DNA from: a virus
Taxonomy: Duplodnaviria > Heunggongvirae > Uroviricota > Caudoviricetes
IMG/VR virus record: IMGVR_UViG_2778261527_000002
DNA: 8,892 nucleotides
Direction: 5' to 3' (one strand)
This document shows positions 1,920-8,892 of this stretch, piece after piece. The first letter of the stretch is position 1; each line of letters opens with the position of its first letter. Both the position numbers and the translations under genes were made by a program. The notes under the pieces are model-generated. The model saw only the letters and a program-made list of their open reading frames with translations, was not told the origin of the DNA and made no database searches.

Positions 1920-1991
1920 TAAAAATGATGAGCCGAGACTGTATTTACGGGACGCTGAGAGAATACCATAGAAAAGCTTATCTAACTTAAG

Positions 1992-1997
1992 TAGAAT
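1992..1997 (+). promoter_or_regulatory. candidate -10 element (TAGAAT) for the hok/mok mRNA
   Basis: Lies about 6-8 nt upstream of the predicted hok mRNA 5' end (GCGGGTGCTTGAGG at 2003), which resembles the recalled R1 hok mRNA 5' end. No convincing -35 found. Confidence 0.3.
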
Positions 1998-2002
1998 TGC
2001 TG

Positions 2003-2016
2003 CGGGTGCTTGAGGC
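2003..2016 (+). promoter_or_regulatory. hok mRNA 5' fold-back (fbi-like) element, complementary to 2378..2392
   Basis: GCGGGTGCTTGAGG pairs with CCTCAACGCACCCGC in the 3' UTR (8 bp + 6 bp with a 1-nt bulge). Adjacent 5' hairpin CTATCTGCC/GGCAGATAG at 2016-2051. Confidence 0.5.
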
Positions 2017-2049
2017 TATCTGCCTCAGGCATGAACACCAAAGGCAGAT

Positions 2050-2123
2050 AGAGAAAAGCCCCAGTTAACATTACGCGTCCTGCAAGACGCTTAACATTAA
2101 TCTGAGGCTCAATCTATGAACGG
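2050..2123 (-). ncRNA. sok: Sok-like antisense RNA (antitoxin) of the hok/sok locus; ends approximate
   Basis: Minus-strand promoter with -35 TTGCCT (complement of 2153-2158), exact 17-nt spacer and -10 TAACCT (complement of 2130-2135), matching the recalled R1 sok promoter layout (TTGCGC-17-TATCCT). Predicted transcript overlaps the mok SD and start and contains a ~15-bp imperfect hairpin (2064-2099) followed by a U-rich tract. Confidence 0.45.
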
Positions 2124-2328
2124 CAAATCTAGGTTAGCCTCTTACGTGCCGAAAGGCAAGGAGAAGCAGGCTATGAAGCAGCAAAAGGCGATGTTAATCG
2201 CCCTGATCGTCATCTGTTTAACCGTCATAGTGACGGCACTGGTAACGAGGAAAGACCTCTGCGAGGTACGAATCCGAACCGGCCAGACGGAGGTCGCTGT
2301 CTTCACAGTCTACGAACCTGAGGAGTAA
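2116..2328 (+). CDS. mok: Mok-like reading frame (modulator of killing), 70 aa, in frame with and N-terminally extending hok
   Basis: ORF in the track starting 19 codons upstream of the hok ATG. An in-frame mok resembles chromosomal mokC-type loci as recalled, whereas R1 mok is out of frame. Confidence 0.45.
   Translation: MNGKSRLASYVPKGKEKQAMKQQKAMLIALIVICLTVIVTALVTRKDLCEVRIRTGQTEVAVFTVYEPEE
2130..2158 (-). promoter_or_regulatory. candidate sok promoter (-35 TTGCCT, 17-nt spacer, -10 TAACCT)
   Basis: Hexamers read directly from the reverse complement; position inside the mok 5' region matches the hok/sok paradigm. Confidence 0.45.
2173..2328 (+). CDS. hok: Hok/Gef-family type I toxin, 51 aa (MKQQKAMLIALIVICLTVIVTALVTRKDLCEVRIRTGQTEVAVFTVYEPEE)
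   Basis: Single transmembrane helix plus the conserved RKDLCEV…EVAVF…YE motif; near-identical to recalled HokD(RelF)/HokC(Gef). SD AAGGAGAAG lies upstream of ATG 2173. Confidence 0.85.
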   Translation: MKQQKAMLIALIVICLTVIVTALVTRKDLCEVRIRTGQTEVAVFTVYEPEE

Positions 2329-2335
2329 GAGACTT

Positions 2336-2357
2336 GGCGAGGGAGAAATCCCTCGCC
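2336..2357 (+). other. perfect 9-bp stem with GAAA tetraloop (GGCGAGGGA-GAAA-TCCCTCGCC) in the hok 3' UTR
   Basis: Exact inverted repeat read from the sequence, 8 nt after the hok stop codon; likely an mRNA-stabilising or folding element. Confidence 0.5.
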
Positions 2358-2377
2358 GCCTCTGATGTGTCAGGCAT

Positions 2378-2392
2378 CCTCAACGCACCCGC
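2378..2392 (+). promoter_or_regulatory. hok mRNA 3' fold-back element, complementary to the 5' end (2003..2016)
   Basis: Long-range complementarity, the hallmark of hok-family mRNAs. Confidence 0.5.
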
Positions 2393-2397
2393 ACTTA

Positions 2398-2417
2398 ACC
2401 CGCTTCGGCGTTTTTTC
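2398..2417 (+). terminator. candidate intrinsic terminator of the hok transcript (short CGC/GCG stem, UUCG loop, T6)
   Basis: ACCCGCTTCGGCG followed by TTTTTT. The stem is only 3 bp, so it is weak on its own; the same motif recurs in stronger form at 3063-3088. Confidence 0.4.
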
Positions 2418-2471
2418 CGTTGATTAACTCTAGTTATTAGAGAACCGAACTTTTATTGATGGGGCAGGGAG

Positions 2472-2864
2472 ATGAAGAAACTTGTTTTAGTCGCAGGTGT
2501 AATGATTGCAACAGTAATGTTGGGAGGGTGTGCAGCAAAGGTCGATCCAGCGTTGAAAGCAGAAGCAATGAAGCCACTAACATGTAATGATGAAAAGCAA
2601 TGTGACTTTTATTGGAAACGAGCGCAATTCTGGTTGGCTAATAATTCCTCATGGAAAATTCAAACGGCGACAGACACGCTAATTTCCACTTATAATCCCT
2701 CTCCAAATAGTCCATTCCTCGCTTATCAAGTGAGTAAAATGCCAAATGAAGATGGATCCTCAAGAATTTTCATCAAGCCTTTTTGCGATAATATGTTTGG
2801 CTGTCAACCAAACCCCTATCAGGCAGTTGTTTCCTTTAAAAACTTCGTTAAAACAGGGCAGTAG
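2472..2864 (+). CDS. predicted lipoprotein, 130 aa, Cys-rich mature domain, function unknown
   Basis: N-terminal MKKLVLVAGVMIATVMLGGC looks like a signal peptide with an L-G-G-C lipobox. GGGAG SD upstream of ATG 2472. Five further Cys in the mature part suggest periplasmic disulfides. Confidence 0.7.
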   Translation: MKKLVLVAGVMIATVMLGGCAAKVDPALKAEAMKPLTCNDEKQCDFYWKRAQFWLANNSSWKIQTATDTLISTYNPSPNSPFLAYQVSKMPNEDGSSRIFIKPFCDNMFGCQPNPYQAVVSFKNFVKTGQ

Positions 2865-3063
2865 TGTATAGCTTGGACGATAAATTATTAGTGAAAACGC
2901 CGTAAACCCTCACCCAATGTGGACTAAGCCTATCAAACATGACTGTGATGATTAGTCCGTAGTTGTTGCCTATGAAATCTGGATTGAGTCAGGGTTTAAT
3001 CCAATAATTATTCTATCGTTCCTTTACAAGTCCGGTATATTACTTTCAGTTTGTTTTAGCATA

Positions 3064-3088
3064 CCCGCTTCGGCGGGTTTTGTTTTTT
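3064..3088 (+). terminator. rho-independent terminator (CCCGC-TTCG-GCGGG stem-loop plus T-rich tract)
   Basis: 5-bp GC stem with UUCG tetraloop followed by TTTTGTTTTTT, at the end of a ~200-bp ORF-free stretch. Confidence 0.65.
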
Positions 3089-3160
3089 CCTGGCATTCTG
3101 GTTTACAATTCGCACGCCAGCCTGAACAACTGGCACCTGCTGCGCCAGCAGAGACAACCG

Positions 3161-3439
3161 ATGGCGCACGATACCAAATTACACAATTCTAATGATTCTG
3201 CCGTCTTTGCCAGCAGGCGCGGACGGCGTTTTCACGTATTCAAATCAGACTGGTTCCAGCATCCTCCATGCACTGAAGAGCAGGCGGAATGGATAATTCA
3301 GTGTTACCGCAGGCGCGGATACGAGGTTAAGAAAGCCCTCAGCCTCGATTATCGTCACTGGATAATCTATGTCAGGCTCCCTTATTCCGAACGCCCACCG
3401 CGCCCATCCCGCACATACCAGCAACGGATCTGGAGGTAA
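3161..3439 (+). CDS. hypothetical protein, about 92 aa ([16 protein letters not shown]…); may be a junction artefact
   Basis: The track ORF (3080..3439) begins inside the terminator T-run, so ATG 3161 is the more plausible start. No clear SD. Its 3' end overlaps the start of the J-derived ORF in another frame. Confidence 0.3.
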
Positions 3440-5174
3440 CGTGCGGATATTACTTCGACCTGTTCTGGTACCGGAGAAAGAAGCCATCGTGGATAACGGG
3501 GCGCACTTTGACGGTGACCAGAGCGGCACGGTGAATGGTGTCACGCCGCCAGCAGTTCAGCACCTGACCGCAGAAGTCACCGCAGACAGCGGGGAATACC
3601 AGGTGCTGGCGCGCTGGGACACGCCGAAGGTGGTGAAGGGGGTGAGCTTTATGCTTCGCCTGACCGTGGCAGCGGACGACGGCAGTGAGCGGTTGGTCAG
3701 CACGGCCCGGACGACGGAAACCACATATCGCTTCACGCAGCTGGCGCTGGGAAATTACAGGCTGACAGTCCGGGCGGTAAATGCATGGGGACAGCAGGGC
3801 GATCCGGCATCGGTATTGTTCCGGATCGCCGCACCGGCAGCGCCGTCGCGGATTGAGCTGACGCCGGGCTATTTTCAGATAACCGCCACGCCGCATCTTG
3901 CGGTTTATGATCCGACGGTACAGTTTGAGTTCTGGTTCTCGGAAAAGCGGATTGCGGATATCAGGCAGGTTGAAACCACAGCCCGCTATCTTGGTACGGC
4001 GCTGTACTGGATAGCCGCCAGTATCAATATCAAACCGGGCCATGATTATTACTTTTATATCCGCAGTGTGAACACCGTAGGCAAATCGGCATTTGTGGAG
4101 GCCGTCGGTCGGGCGAGCGATGATGCATCCGGCTATCTGGATTTTTTCAAAGGCGAGATAGGGAAAACCCATCTGGCTCAGGAGCTGTGGACGCAGATTG
4201 ATAACGGTCAGCTTGCGCCTGACCTGGCTGAAATCAGGACGTCCATTACGGATGTCAGCAATGAAATCACGCAGACCGTCAATAAGAAACTGGAAGACCA
4301 GAGTGCGGCAATTCAGCAGATACAGAAGGTTCAGGTTGATACAAATAATAACCTGAACAGCATGTGGGCTGTGAAGCTGCAGCAGATGCAGGACGGACGC
4401 CTTTATATCGCGGGTATTGGTGCCGGTATTGAGAACACCCCTGACGGCATGCAGAGTCAGGTGCTGCTGGCGGCGGACAGGATTGCGATGGTTAATCCTG
4501 CGAATGGCAACACAAAACCGATGTTTGTTGGTCAGGGTGATCAGATATTCATGAACGACGTGTTCCTGAAACGCCTGACGGCCCCCACCATTACCAGCGG
4601 TGGAAATCCACCGGCATTTTCCCTGACACCGGACGGGCGACTGACGGCGAAAAATGCGGATATCAGTGGCAGTGTGAATGCGAACGCCGGGACGCTCAAC
4701 AATGTCACGATAAATGAAAACTGTCGGGTTCTGGGAAAACTGTCTGCGAACCAGATTGAAGGCGATCTCGTTAAAACAGTGGGCAAAGCTTTCCCCCGGG
4801 ACTCCCGTGCACCGGAGCGGTGGCCATCAGGGACCATTACCGTCAGGGTTTATGACGATCAGCCGTTTGACCGGCAGATTGTTATTCCCGCGGTGGCGTT
4901 TCGTGGCGCTAAACATGAGCGGGAGAATAACGATATTTATTCGTCATGCCGCCTGATAGTGAAGAAAAACGGTGCTGAAATTTATAACCGTACCGCGCTG
5001 GATAATACGCTGGTTTATACAGGTGTTATTGATATGCCTGCTGGTCGCGGTCACATGACGCTGGAGTTTTCGGTATCAGCGTGGCTGGTAAATGACTGGT
5101 ATCCCACAGCCAGTATCAGTGATTTGCTGGTTGTGGTGATGAAGAAATCCACCGCAGGCATCAGTATCAGCTGA
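3369..5174 (+). pseudogene. J: 5'-truncated tail-tip host-specificity protein J (about the C-terminal half, with the receptor-binding end); J similarity starts near 3465
   Basis: From [16 protein letters not shown] onward the translation tracks the recalled C-terminal half of lambda J (e.g. [32 protein letters not shown]). The first ~33 codons are unrelated, the frame closes at a TAA at 3363-3365, and there is no SD at ATG 3369. Whether the fragment is expressed is unknown. Confidence 0.75.
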
Positions 5175-5193
5175 ATTTTATAACCCATATACG

Positions 5194-5219
5194 GGCGCCA
5201 GAAATGGCGCCTTTTTTAT
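5194..5219 (+). terminator. rho-independent terminator downstream of J (GGCGCCA-GAAA-TGGCGCC plus T6)
   Basis: Perfect 7-bp GC-rich stem, GAAA loop, followed by TTTTTTATT. Confidence 0.75.
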
Positions 5220-5241
5220 TGCAGAAAAGCGAGAGGTAATT

Positions 5242-5841
5242 ATGCGTAAAGTTTGTGCAGCCATTTTGTCCGCAGCCATCTGTCTGGCCGTATCCGGTGC
5301 GCCTGCATGGGCGTCTGAGCATCAGTCCACGCTGAGCGCGGGGTATCTTCATGCCCGGACGAACGTTCCCGGCAGTGATGATCTGAACGGGATTAACGTG
5401 AAATACCGTTATGAGTTTACGGACACACTGGGGATGGTGACGTCGTTCAGCTATGCAGGAGACAAGAATCGCCAGATTACCCGTTACAGCGATACCCGCT
5501 GGCATGAAGATTCCGTTCGTAACCGCTGGTTCAGCGTAATGGCGGGGCCGTCTGTGCGCGTGAATGAATGGTTCAGCGCGTATGCGATGGCGGGTGTGGC
5601 TTACAGCCGTGTGTCGACTTTCTCCGGGGATTATCTCCGCGTAACTGACAACAAGGGGAAAAAGCACGATGTGCTGACCGGAAGTGATGACGGTCGCCAC
5701 AGCAACACGTCTCTGGCGTGGGGAGCTGGCGTGCAGTTTAACCCGACCGAATCCGTGGCCATTGATGTCGCTTATGAAGGCTCCGGCAGTGGTGACTGGC
5801 GCACTGACGGGTTCATCGTGGGTGTTGGTTATAAATTCTGA
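5242..5841 (+). CDS. lom: Lom outer-membrane protein (Ail/Lom/OmpX family beta-barrel), 199 aa
   Basis: Signal peptide [25 protein letters not shown]-terminal aromatic residue (…GVGYKF), and a translation matching recalled lambda Lom. Sits between J and stf as in lambda. Confidence 0.9.
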
Positions 5842-5867
5842 TTAGCCAGGTAACACAGTGTTATGAC

Positions 5868-5895
5868 AGCCCGCCGGTTCAGGCGGGCTTTTTTG
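5868..5895 (+). terminator. rho-independent terminator downstream of lom (AGCCCGCC-GGTTCA-GGCGGGCT plus T6)
   Basis: Perfect 8-bp stem followed by TTTTTTG. Confidence 0.75.
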
Positions 5896-5905
5896 TGGGG
5901 TGAAT

Positions 5906-8892
5906 ATGGCAGTAAAAATTTCAGGTGTACTGAAAGACGGCACAGGAAAACCGGTACAGAACTGCACAATCCAGCTGAAAGCAAAACGTAACAGTACCAC
6001 GGTGGTGGTGAACACGCTGGCATCTGAAAATCCGGATGAAGCCGGGCGTTACAGTATGGACGTTGAGTACGGTCAGTACAGCGTTATTCTGTTGGTGGAA
6101 GGATTCCCGCCGTCACATGCCGGGACCATCACAGTGTATGAAGATTCCCGACCCGGTACGCTGAATGATTTTCTCGGTGCCATGACGGAGGATGATGCCC
6201 GTCCGGAGGCACTGCGCCGCTTTGAACTGATGGTGGAAGAGGTGGCGCGTAACGCGTCCGCAGTGGCGCAGAACACAGCAGCCGCGAAGAAGTCAGCCAG
6301 CGATGCCGGCACATCAGCCCGTGAGGCGGCAACCCGTGCGACTGATGCTGCAGGCTCAGCACGTGCAGCCAGCACGTCAGCCGGACAGGCCGCGTCGTCG
6401 GCTCAGTCAGCGTCTTCCAGCGCAGGAACGGCATCAACAAAGGCCACTGAAGCATCAAAAAGTGCTGCCGCCGCAGAGTCTTCAAAAAGCGCGGCAGCTA
6501 CCAGTGCCAGTGCCGCGAAAACGTCAGAAACGAATGCTGCAGCGTCACAACAATCAGCAGCCACTTCTGCATCCACCGCGACGACGAAAGCGTCAGAAGC
6601 TGCCACCTCAGCCCGGGATGCGGCGGCTTCAAAAGAGGCGGCAAAATCATCAGAAACGAGCGCAGCCTCGAGCGCCAGTAGTGCAGCCTCCTCGGCAATG
6701 GCGGCAGGCAATTCCGCGAAGGCGGCCAAAACGTCTGAGACAAACGCTAAGTCCTCTGAAACGGCAGCAGAACAGAGTGCCTCCGCAGCAGCAGGCTCAA
6801 AAACAGCGGCTGCATTATCTGCCAGTGCCGCGTCAACAAGTGCCGGGCAGGCCTCAGCCAGTGCCACCGCCGCCGGAAAATCGGCAGAAAGCGCCGCATC
6901 GTCCGCTTCAACAGCCACAACGAAGGCTGGCGAAGCCACTGAACAGGCCAGCGCAGCAGCGAGGTCTGCTTCCGCAGCGAAGACATCCGAGACGAACGCG
7001 AAAGCGTCGGAAACCAGCGCAGAATCCTCAAAAACGGCTGCCGCATCGTCCGCCAGTTCGGCGGCGTCATCGGCATCATCTGCGTCTGCTTCAAAAGATG
7101 AGGCGACCAGACAGGCATCAGCAGCGAAAGGCAGCGCCACGACGGCATCCACGAAGGCGACAGAGGCAGCTGGTAGTGCGACGGCGGCAGCTCAGAGCAA
7201 AAGTACGGCGGAATCCGCGGCAACGCGCGCCGAGACAGCAGCAAAACGGGCAGAGGATATTGCATCCGCCGTGGCGCTTGAGGATGCGAGCACGACGAAA
7301 AAGGGGATAGTACAGCTCAGCAGTGCGACCAACAGCACTTCCGAGTCACTGGCGGCAACGCCAAAGGCAGTAAAATCAGCCTATGACAATGCAGAGAAAC
7401 GTCTGCAGAAAGACCAGAACGGCGCTGATATACCCGATAAGGGACGCTTCCTGAACAACATTAACGCGGTCAGTAAAACAGACTTTGCTGATAAGCGTGG
7501 TATGCGTTATGTGCGGGTTAACGCTCCTGCAGGTGCAATATCTGGAAGATATTACCCTGTTGTTGTTATGCGTTCTGCTGGCTCAGTAAGCGAACTGGCA
7601 TCAAGGGTCATTATCACCACGGCAACGCGAACCGCAGGCGATCCGATGAATAACTGCGAGTTTAACGGGTTTGTTATGCCTGGTGGCTGGACTGACAGGG
7701 GGCGTTATGCTTATGGAATGTTCTGGCAATATCAAAACAATGAACGAGCCATCCACTCAATAATGATGAGTAATAAGGGCGATGATTTGCGCTCTGTGTT
7801 CTATGTTGATGGTGCTGCTTTCCCTGTTTTTGCGTTTATTGAAGATGGCCTGTCAATATCCGCACCTGGTGCTGATCTCGTTGTTAATGATACGACCTAT
7901 AAGTTTGGGGCAACAAATCCGGCGACTGAATGTATCGCGGCGGACGTTATCCTTGATTTTAAGAGTGGCCGTGGTTTTTATGAGTCCCATTCGTTAATCG
8001 TTAACGATAACTTGTCGTGCAAAAAACTTTTTGCCACAGACGAAATTGTAGCGCGTGGTGGTAATCAGATTCGAATGATAGGTGGGGAGTATGGTGCATT
8101 ATGGCGTAATGATGGCGCTAAAACTTACCTGCTGCTTACCAATCAAGGTGATGTTTATGGTGGCTGGAATACATTAAGACCGTTTGCTATTGATAACGCA
8201 ACCGGCGAACTGGTTATTGGAACCAAACTGTCCGCAAGTCTGAACGGTAATGCATTAACAGCAACAAAGCTGCAAACGCCAAGACTGGTTTCTGGTGTTG
8301 AGTTTGATGGTTCCAAAGATATTACTTTAACCGCCGCGCATGTGGCTGCTTTTGCCAGAAGGGCAACGGATACATATGCCGATGCGGATGGTGGCGTTCC
8401 CTGGAATGCCGAATCAGGCGCTTATAATGTCACCCGCTCTGGCGACAGCTATATTCTGGTTAACTTCTATACCGGAGTCGGAAGTTGCCGGACCCTGCAG
8501 ATGAAGGCGCATTACAGAAATGGTGGTCTGTTCTACCGTTCTTCAAGAGATGGCTATGGTTTTGAGGAAGACTGGGCAGAAGTTTATACCTCGAAAAATC
8601 TTCCACCAGAAAGCTACCCAGTCGGCGCACCAATCCCGTGGCCATCAGATACCGTTCCGTCTGGTTATGCCCTGATGCAGGGGCAGACTTTTGACAAATC
8701 TGCCTACCCGAAACTTGCTGCCGCTTATCCGTCAGGCGTGATCCCTGATTTGCGTGGCTGGACGATTAAGGGCAAGCCCGCCAGTGGTCGTGCCGTATTG
8801 TCTCAGGAACAGGATGGCATTAAATCGCATACCCACAGCGCCAGCGCATCCAGTACGGATTTGGGGACGAAAACCACATCGTCGTTTGATTA
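5906..8892 (+). CDS. stf: side tail fibre protein Stf, 3'-partial (about 995 codons, runs off the window end)
   Basis: N-terminus [31 protein letters not shown]… and C-terminal segment [76 protein letters not shown]… match recalled lambda Stf. Hand translation found no stop from 5906 to 8890. Confidence 0.9.
6250..7300 (+). repeat. low-complexity Ala/Ser/Thr-rich coding repeats (recurring [17 protein letters not shown]-type units) in the Stf shaft
   Basis: GC-rich imperfect tandem repetition visible in DNA and protein; it produces long spurious ORFs in other frames on both strands. Confidence 0.7.

Follow-up and report, generated by a model that had tools for sequence, protein, structure and literature searches.

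A mobile prophage moron encoding a predicted outer-membrane lipoprotein of an uncharacterised family, with a possible role in superinfection exclusion

Introduction

A stretch of 8,892 nucleotides from the tailed-virus record IMGVR_UViG_2778261527_000002 (Caudoviricetes), here called the window, carries a small gene on the plus strand at positions 2472–2864. This gene, carried by a lambda/HK97-like E. coli prophage, is very probably a mobile moron that encodes an outer-membrane lipoprotein of an uncharacterised family, the term moron being used in the sense based on HK97 gene 15 (Juhala et al., 2000; PMC3594210). The data as a whole are best explained by a mobile lipoprotein moron acting in superinfection exclusion, a reading to which we give somewhat less than an even chance. 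The element is of a known kind, a prophage moron for an envelope lipoprotein, and mechanistically there is nothing surprising about it yet. An earlier note, made from the sequence, had described the product as a Cys-rich lipoprotein encoded between a toxin-antitoxin locus and the tail genes, and had proposed it as a candidate for superinfection exclusion or surface modification.

A predicted lipoprotein under selection

The ORF list and translation give a precursor of 130 amino acids and a mature protein of 111 amino acids (12.6 kDa) for the open reading frame (ORF) at 2472–2864. The product is identical to RefSeq WP_000737636.1, which is annotated as 'hypothetical protein', and no paper on this accession, its locus tag, its PHROG identifiers or its peptides was found in the literature. 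The signal peptide and lipobox (MKKLVLVAGVMIATVMLGG followed by C20) are encoded at 2472–2531 on the plus strand. The N-terminus consists of K2K3, a 14-residue hydrophobic core (LVLVAGVMIATVM) and the lipobox L-G-G-C20. It thus agrees with PROSITE rule PS51257, which asks for a positively charged n-region, a hydrophobic h-region and a lipobox Cys between residues 15 and 35. A regular expression of the PS51257 type matches residues 10–20, and C20 is invariant across 52 diverse homologues of 32–81% identity (alignment A4). By every rule-based criterion applied, the predicted product is a bacterial lipoprotein, and the ORF with its signal peptide and lipobox stands exactly as the earlier note placed it. 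In the Lol pathway, the residue after the lipobox Cys (the +2 position) determines membrane sorting. The Ala at +2, in place of Asp, predicts by this rule an outer-membrane anchor with the protein facing the periplasm. Six Cys had been claimed for the product, and the translation shows five (C20, C38, C44, C105 and C111).

The G+C content of the gene is 40.2% (36.6% at third codon positions), as compared with 54.5% for the adjoining remnant of the tail gene J, 55.8% for lom and 50.9% for the whole window, in line with the claim that the gene is richer in A+T than the tail genes. The ratio of nonsynonymous to synonymous substitution (dN/dS) is 0.07–0.12 against the orthologues in Enterobacter and Phytobacter. 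In more distant orthologue pairs the synonymous sites are saturated while dN is still 0.12–0.25. A chance ORF was rejected on the basis of dN/dS of about 0.1 and the 532 family representatives found at E<=1e-10; to judge from these substitution patterns, 2472–2864 is a genuine gene under selection.

Family and predicted fold

The protein matches phrog_16082 over its entire length (E=2.6e-84, residues 1–130 against positions 1–130 of the 130 in the profile) and phrog_4186 weakly. Among the 52 family members, all match phrog_16082 and 48 match phrog_4186. Both are automatic clusters of 'unknown function' that come with no description, domain definition or experimental data. An exhaustive profile search returned 1,141 cluster representatives at E<=1e-3, including the 532 mentioned above, from Alpha-, Beta- and Gammaproteobacteria. 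No Pfam family matches the window protein at E<=0.01, diverse homologues being likewise unmatched, and no NCBIfam model matches either the window protein or diverse homologues. The defence models of PADLOC-DB 2.0 gave nothing at E<=1 for the window protein and four diverse homologues, and the best hit of a sequence search of the PDB had an E-value of about 0.5, both with the single protein and with a 52-sequence profile. The statement that the product belongs to no assignable known family is thus borne out, PHROGs of unknown function being the only matches.

In the 52-member alignment, no variation is seen at C20, C38, C44 or C105 and hardly any at C111; other conserved positions are W48, W54, S59 and T73. 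The four Cys of the mature domain form two CX5C motifs. They are probably disulphide-bonded, which would fit an oxidising compartment. Standalone lipoproteins of 125–135 amino acids make up the majority of the family. Additional modules found in some of the others are a PDZ domain at the C-terminus, a LysM domain at the N-terminus (on Acinetobacter plasmids), DUF4124, Pro-rich tails and a tandem duplication. In the LysM-fused version of Acinetobacter baumannii (locus L008, 4776–5345), the domain lies behind an N-terminal LysM in place of the lipobox, and this version is conserved on a large MOBP plasmid group of about 110-kb plasmids (126 plasmid records).

An AlphaFold2 model of the protein has a pLDDT (predicted local distance difference test) above 90 for residues 31–130 and shows a short strand and a long helix together with an antiparallel sheet of four strands and a helix at the C-terminus, so that the mature protein is modelled as a helix-grip-like alpha/beta domain. 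Foldseek searches of the PDB and BFVD gave no match at E<=1e-3. The outer-membrane lipoprotein Flpp3 (DUF3568) and the N-terminal domain of the outer-membrane lipoprotein BamC, which have the helix-grip fold, are 11–13% identical to the protein with Foldseek E-values of 0.01 or worse. Eukaryotic KA1 and START-like domains score as high in the fold search. Because KA1 domains score equally, the modelled likeness to Flpp3 and BamC would be a resemblance at the fold level only, weak and generic.

Among homologues of 70–85% identity, almost all variation is held by one surface loop, residues 74–83 (nucleotides 2691–2720), which is also the lowest-confidence part of the mature-domain model. It occurs in two allele types, SPNSPF/APNSPL and PQYDAR/PGSDAR, and it is a candidate specificity determinant.

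A cassette inserted at the hok terminator

The gene lies in a cassette of about 650 bp that is inserted between two copies of the hok terminator, as found by comparison with the cassette-free phage Evi (alignment A1). Evi has hok, a single terminator ACCCGCTTCGGCGGGTTTTGTTTTTTCC (-14.7 kcal/mol, z = -3.0) and then a rem-like gene. In the window, the left boundary of the cassette is a crippled copy of this terminator (ACCCGCTTCGGCG-TTTTTTCC, lacking GGTTTTG) at 2398–2418 on the plus strand, where the hairpin is lost (-5.5 kcal/mol, z = -0.12). The right boundary, located by a terminator scan at 3063–3088 on the plus strand, is an intact intrinsic terminator (ACCCGCTTCGGCGGGT plus a T-run; -13.1 kcal/mol, z = -2.25), a duplicate of the hok terminator identical to the single one of Evi. 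Between the left boundary and the start codon lies a conserved leader at 2419–2471 on the plus strand (TTTTATTGATGGGGCAGGGAG), with a purine-rich ribosome-binding region at 2461–2471 (alignment A6). Downstream of the ORF, the cassette ends in an untranslated and variable part (2865–3062, plus strand; alignment A1), within which phage 606R7 has a 68-bp deletion and where Rfam gave no match.

In six independent contexts, a hairpin of the CCCGCTTCGGYGGGTTTT type is followed by a leader of about 55 nucleotides ending in TTTACTGATGGGGATAGGGA; hairpin and leader move together with the ORF (alignment A6). This suggests that the cassette was captured through recombination at short stretches of homology in the terminator.

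In other respects, too, the gene has the character of a moron. In the related phages Evi, 813R8 and 640R1, only the two flanks match and the cassette is absent. In five other enterobacterial contexts, the G+C content is 36–41% against 46–55% in the flanks, that is, 10–15 points lower, and an own terminator directly follows the stop codon in the tail-module contexts L009 (8440–8461) and L012 (8403–8422). Extra DNA between genes that are adjacent in relatives, a deviant composition and an own terminator are thus all present, and the moron status given to the gene by the earlier note holds on most of the defining features. The cassette was found in 254 of the 5,426 complete E. coli genomes (4.7%), always on the chromosome, at an identity of at least 95% and with the reading frame intact.

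With regard to expression, relatives have a TGnTAGGAT box resembling an extended -10 element, which has degenerated in the window copy into a weaker TATTAG, and a scan of 2330–2471 for sigma-70-type promoters found no site. Because the upstream terminator is destroyed and no sigma-70-type site passed the scan, read-through from hok is the most likely source of transcription. In the lysogen, the gene would probably be transcribed by read-through from the constitutive hok promoter, and after induction probably from the early rightward operon. The hok transcripts themselves probably run on for about 650 nucleotides across the lipoprotein gene, and this extension might interfere with the 3' fold-back by which hok mRNA is regulated.

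Native position and prophage decay

Upstream of the cassette lies a type I toxin-antitoxin locus, hok/sok. The mok/hok reading frames occupy 2116–2328 on the plus strand (Pfam HOK_GEF, E=6.4e-22; phrog_251), and the sok/hok 5' RNA element is found at 2004–2178 (Rfam RF01794, 111.7 bits). The rem-like small gene at 3162–3439 on the plus strand is the native downstream neighbour of the cassette, and it is annotated in phage 689R5, strain 042 and E. coli E6 (alignment A1). Further downstream, the window continues with the C-terminal half of a lambda-type J gene, lom and a side-tail-fibre gene (stf).

This last arrangement is not native. By BLAST, window positions 1987–3475 are 99.3% identical and positions 3468–8892 are 99.7% identical to E. 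coli E6 (NZ_CP104539.1), where 21,964 bp lie between the two segments. The deletion junction at 3468–3475 is an 8-bp microhomology, GTACCGGA, as seen from the BLAST alignment with E6 and inspection of both breakpoints. This octamer is present at both breakpoints in E6, and a single copy is kept in the window. The deletion removed everything from ydfU through the first half of J and joined codon 11/12 of ydfU to codon 592 of J, creating an in-frame fusion ORF, YdfU(1-11)::J(592-end), at 3441–5174 on the plus strand. The match of the fusion translation to NCBIfam lambda_TipJ covers only positions 592–1163 of the 1163 in the profile. By its sequence, the fusion ORF is a remnant of the tail-tip gene J, non-functional as a tail gene. 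From about position 3476, just past the first codons of ydfU, the window diverges from all aligned relatives.

In E6, the order is hokD, lipoprotein, rem-like gene, ydfU (DUF968), rusA, Q, tRNAs, lysis, terminase, head, tail, J, lom and stf, which places the lipoprotein gene about 21 kb from J. The order hok, lipoprotein, rem, ydfU is found in all of the 56 E. coli-type viral contigs that carry the gene, none of which has J nearby, and it is the same in the induced phages vB_EcoS-689R5 and vB_EcoM-606R7 and in strain 042. The lipoprotein gene abuts J in the window because of the 21,964-bp deletion; its position beside tail genes came about by chance as the prophage decayed, and its native place is the early nin-type region after hok. 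The earlier placing of the gene between the toxin-antitoxin locus (hok/sok) and the tail genes (J, lom and stf) is therefore correct for the window but does not represent the native order.

Genomic contexts of relatives

Genomes were also scanned for relatives by means of a degenerate DNA pattern, devised by hand for C-D-N-[MLI]-F-G-C-x-P, which samples only part of the family. Outside E. coli, homologues recur in the tail module. The gene lies between the tape-measure gene and M in Enterobacter hormaechei (81% identity), between I and J in Pantoea ananatis and the viral contigs L074 and L075 (73–76%), and beside an M-like gene in a prophage remnant of Phytobacter (69–70%). Close homologues occur in L072, after a YafO toxin gene and one small ORF before I-J, and in L073, after a Bro/antirepressor gene and two small ORFs before I-J. 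A distinct subclade (hidden Markov model E of about 1e-33 to 1e-36) is found in two Pseudomonas species genomes and five viral contigs, where the order is tape measure, M, L, K, lipoprotein, I, J. In an uncultured siphophage resembling a gene transfer agent, a homologue of 31% identity lies inside the tail module. The tail-module homologues of Enterobacter, Pantoea, Pseudomonas and uncultured phages lie 0–4 genes from J, so that tail-adjacent placing, an artefact in the window, does hold elsewhere. In L072 (6374–6784) and L073 (6332–6679), a second and unrelated lipoprotein ORF (lipobox LSGC and MVGC, respectively) lies immediately before I-J and overlaps the family gene at its 3' end, forming a two-lipoprotein cassette; no Pfam match was found for these second ORFs.

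Other relatives accompany regulators. The Thiobacillus prophage L079 has at 5707–7827 a tight and partly overlapping string of cI (helix-turn-helix plus S24 peptidase), orf217, the lipoprotein gene and a gene with an SNase domain. A nuclease beside a putative exclusion lipoprotein in a repressor operon could represent a multi-part exclusion module. In L107 (helix-turn-helix, repressor-like), L124 (S24-containing) and L088, the gene is directly downstream of a regulator and co-oriented with it, and in L095 it is one small ORF away from an integrase gene. It is well supported that the family recurs in two slots, the tail-tip module and the position downstream of CI-type repressors, and that both are classical slots for prophage exclusion and conversion genes.

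The family extends to plasmids and chromosomes. A member of 42% identity, WP_032201349.1, is the largest cargo ORF of ColE1-type plasmids of 2.5–4.6 kb in Citrobacter and Salmonella, and it is also present on an 8.6-kb Enterobacter plasmid together with transposon genes. A Rhodanobacteraceae genome has the gene within an island made up of insertion sequence elements and toxin-antitoxin genes. In two Caballeronia udeis strains and Ca. Burkholderia crenata, a member next to gshA is apparently chromosomal, and L077 is a chromosomal-looking orphan. The Caballeronia and Ca. Burkholderia member is longer, with a Pro-rich C-terminal tail (L159, 2551–3144; L171, 3009–3746; L160, 4530–5090). In L171 and L160 it is directly downstream of gshA, apparently a syntenic chromosomal version and a possible ancestral source of the phage genes. 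Altogether, repeated and independent capture has brought the gene into at least a dozen different slots in phages and plasmids.

Comparison with known systems

Llp, Cor and Rtp45 are periplasm-facing outer-membrane lipoproteins encoded beside the gene for the receptor-binding protein; Llp binds FhuA and Rtp45 binds LptDE (PMC9586334, PMC12685063). Like Llp of T5, Cor of T1, phi80 and N15, and Rtp45 of Rtp, the present product is a phage-encoded lipoprotein with a Cys-bearing mature domain. Like their genes, the homologues of Pantoea and L074/L075 adjoin the gene for the receptor-binding protein, and those of Pseudomonas, L072/L073 and Enterobacter are within 1–4 genes of J. The early-region placing in E. 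coli would give an Llp-like early expression. Whereas Llp has a single disulphide that ties its termini, the present protein has four Cys in two CX5C motifs.

The earlier note had likened the gene to Cor, Llp and Bor-type morons while assigning it to no family, and the homology that it proposed to look for did not materialise. Cor (phrog_1119) was matched with E=0.0071 over residues 1–44 only, mostly signal peptide, with no stretch passing alone; no Pfam and no fold match was obtained, and homology to Cor was rejected. Lambda Bor was also rejected, since Pfam Lambda_Bor is unmatched and both size and predicted fold differ. The likeness to lambda Bor and Lom is that of moron-type, prophage-encoded outer-membrane proteins, of which Bor is a lipoprotein; Bor adjoins the lysis genes, and lom lies 2.4 kb downstream in the same window.

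A parallel in architecture is provided by HK97 gp15, the product of a tail-operon moron that excludes superinfection and has chromosomal homologues (PMC3594210). Like the gene 15 moron, the cassette is an add-on relative to sister phages, with deviant G+C content and flanking terminator hairpins; the family occurs in the tail operons of several phages and encodes an envelope protein, and, as with gp15 (YebO), homologues exist in chromosomes outside prophages. Unlike the lipoprotein, gp15 is a small inner-membrane protein. Furthermore, the E. coli cassette differs from the gene 15 moron in that it lies within the hok terminator of the early region instead of the late operon, and that an own promoter is not evident in the window copy.

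Several other identities were tried and rejected. An o-spanin (Rz1-type) does not fit the position, the size, the lack of an i-spanin partner or the folded domain of 111 amino acids; at other positions, 689R5, 606R7 and the E6 prophage carry Rz/lysis genes of their own. A virion structural or assembly protein was rejected in view of the export signal and lipobox, and an antidote to Hok in view of the sok RNA that the hok locus has of its own.

Possible function

As a lipoprotein, the product would display a compact 12.6-kDa alpha/beta domain in the periplasm, and most likely it would act at the level of the envelope for the benefit of the lysogen or the infected cell. The preferred mechanism, by analogy with Llp, Cor and Rtp45 but with an unrelated and larger fold, is superinfection exclusion, for which our confidence is tentative. 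On this view, a receptor or entry component in the outer membrane would be bound by the lipoprotein from the periplasmic side, which would prevent adsorption or DNA delivery by related siphophages. Carriage of a family member as cargo on ColE1-type plasmids indicates independent selection and is counted in favour of exclusion. The wider proposal that the family represents an unrecognised, widespread class of prophage and plasmid exclusion lipoproteins, with a 12-kDa helix-grip fold and two CX5C motifs, must be considered somewhat doubtful.

A number of observations weigh against exclusion. Sequence and fold searches found no relationship to any known exclusion protein, the fold searches giving no structural similarity to the solved Llp, Rtp45 or other phage lipoproteins. 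The mature protein (111 amino acids, 12.6 kDa) is twice the size of Llp, Cor and Rtp45 (about 60 amino acids, about 6–7 kDa); published values are 61 residues for Llp and about 6 kDa for Rtp45 (PMC9586334, PMC12685063). The E. coli gene is not beside a receptor-binding gene, and its window copy has no site in the promoter scan described above. Phage 640R1 has the same type of J receptor-binding domain (93% identity) with the cassette absent, so there is no strict coupling to J type, although this is the one informative comparison, the records of both cassette-carrying phages stopping before the C-terminus of J. Lipoproteins of 70–85% identity accompany quite different J proteins across genera. 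Because of this last point, the target might be a conserved entry component and not a specific receptor, which would give a broad-spectrum block of siphophages. In addition, there are the chromosomal-looking members (the gshA neighbours in Caballeronia and Ca. Burkholderia and the L077 orphan), and the PDZ- and LysM-fused members hint at a more general periplasmic role. Finally, morons commonly land in tail operons whatever their function.

The same body of evidence has to be read against three other explanations. The lipoprotein could be a factor for host fitness or virulence conversion that changes the envelope in the manner of Bor or Lom (serum or complement resistance, adhesion, or tolerance of stress or antibiotics). 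The moron architecture, the relatives placed behind a repressor in slots expressed from the prophage, the cargo on small plasmids of Salmonella, Citrobacter and Enterobacter, the chromosomal versions and the presence of lom nearby in the prophage of the window would all suit such a factor. We consider it unlikely, however: there is neither homology to Bor nor a Pfam match, Lambda_Bor included, the fold similarity is weak and generic with KA1 and START-like domains scoring equally, and environmental Proteobacteria with their phages, where host-associated virulence traits are unexpected, often harbour the family (Thiobacillus, Rhodanobacteraceae, Caulobacteraceae). Tiny ColE1-type plasmids typically carry genes for a bacteriocin and its immunity protein. 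That a family member is the largest cargo ORF of such plasmids points to a periplasmic inhibitor or immunity protein, similar to T4 Spackle or Ivy/MliC, directed against a bacteriocin, a type VI effector or a muralytic enzyme of phages. Two conserved CX5C motifs could form disulphide-closed loops in an inhibitor, relatives are fused to the peptidoglycan-binding LysM domain and also to PDZ, and the gene of the Pseudomonas phages follows K, which encodes a JAB and NlpC/P60 peptidase. In about 30 contexts examined, however, no toxin, effector or bacteriocin gene is adjacent, and neither Ivy, MliC, PliC, Cmi and Spackle nor any of the immunity families was matched significantly in structure. An orphan immunity protein would explain the recurrent tail-tip and repressor positions no better than exclusion does, and this possibility appears quite unlikely.

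The product may also be a neutral passenger, a periplasmic lipoprotein of a housekeeping type that phages acquired and that has no role between phage and host. An apparently chromosomal and syntenic version does exist in Caballeronia and Ca. Burkholderia, an own promoter is not detectable in the window copy, and only 4.7% of the complete E. coli genomes carry the gene. This is improbable in the face of strong purifying selection (dN/dS of about 0.1 between genera, with synonymous sites saturated), the frame kept intact at an identity of at least 95% in 254 E. coli genomes, and the repeated independent capture in at least a dozen phage and plasmid slots.

If superinfection exclusion is the true function, the few exclusion lipoproteins known so far would be joined by a new structural class with an exceptionally wide distribution. 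The family would then account in part for failures of phage host range in about 5% of E. coli and in many lysogens of Pseudomonas, Enterobacter and Pantoea, and it would provide a handle on an envelope component required for siphophage entry. Even if exclusion is not involved, the cassette is a clean and datable case of moron capture at a terminator hairpin, and the locus shows how prophage decay gives rise to misleading gene neighbourhoods. With its breadth and its consistent genomic slots, the family is well suited to experimental testing, and for annotation there is a case for a curated family that covers phrog_16082 and phrog_4186.

Other features of the window

Positions 353–1986 of the window form a block of small ORFs with no counterpart in the otherwise 99%-identical E6, where a gene for QueH (epoxyqueuosine reductase) is found instead. 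The block includes a phrog_660-like ORF of 171 amino acids at 1007–1522 and represents a mosaic swap in the nin-type region. At the other end, stf occupies 5906–8892 and runs past the end of the window. Its Ala-rich repeats at about 6150–7350, with a G+C content of 61% and a strong AT skew, produce long spurious ORFs both in the other frames and on the complementary strand.

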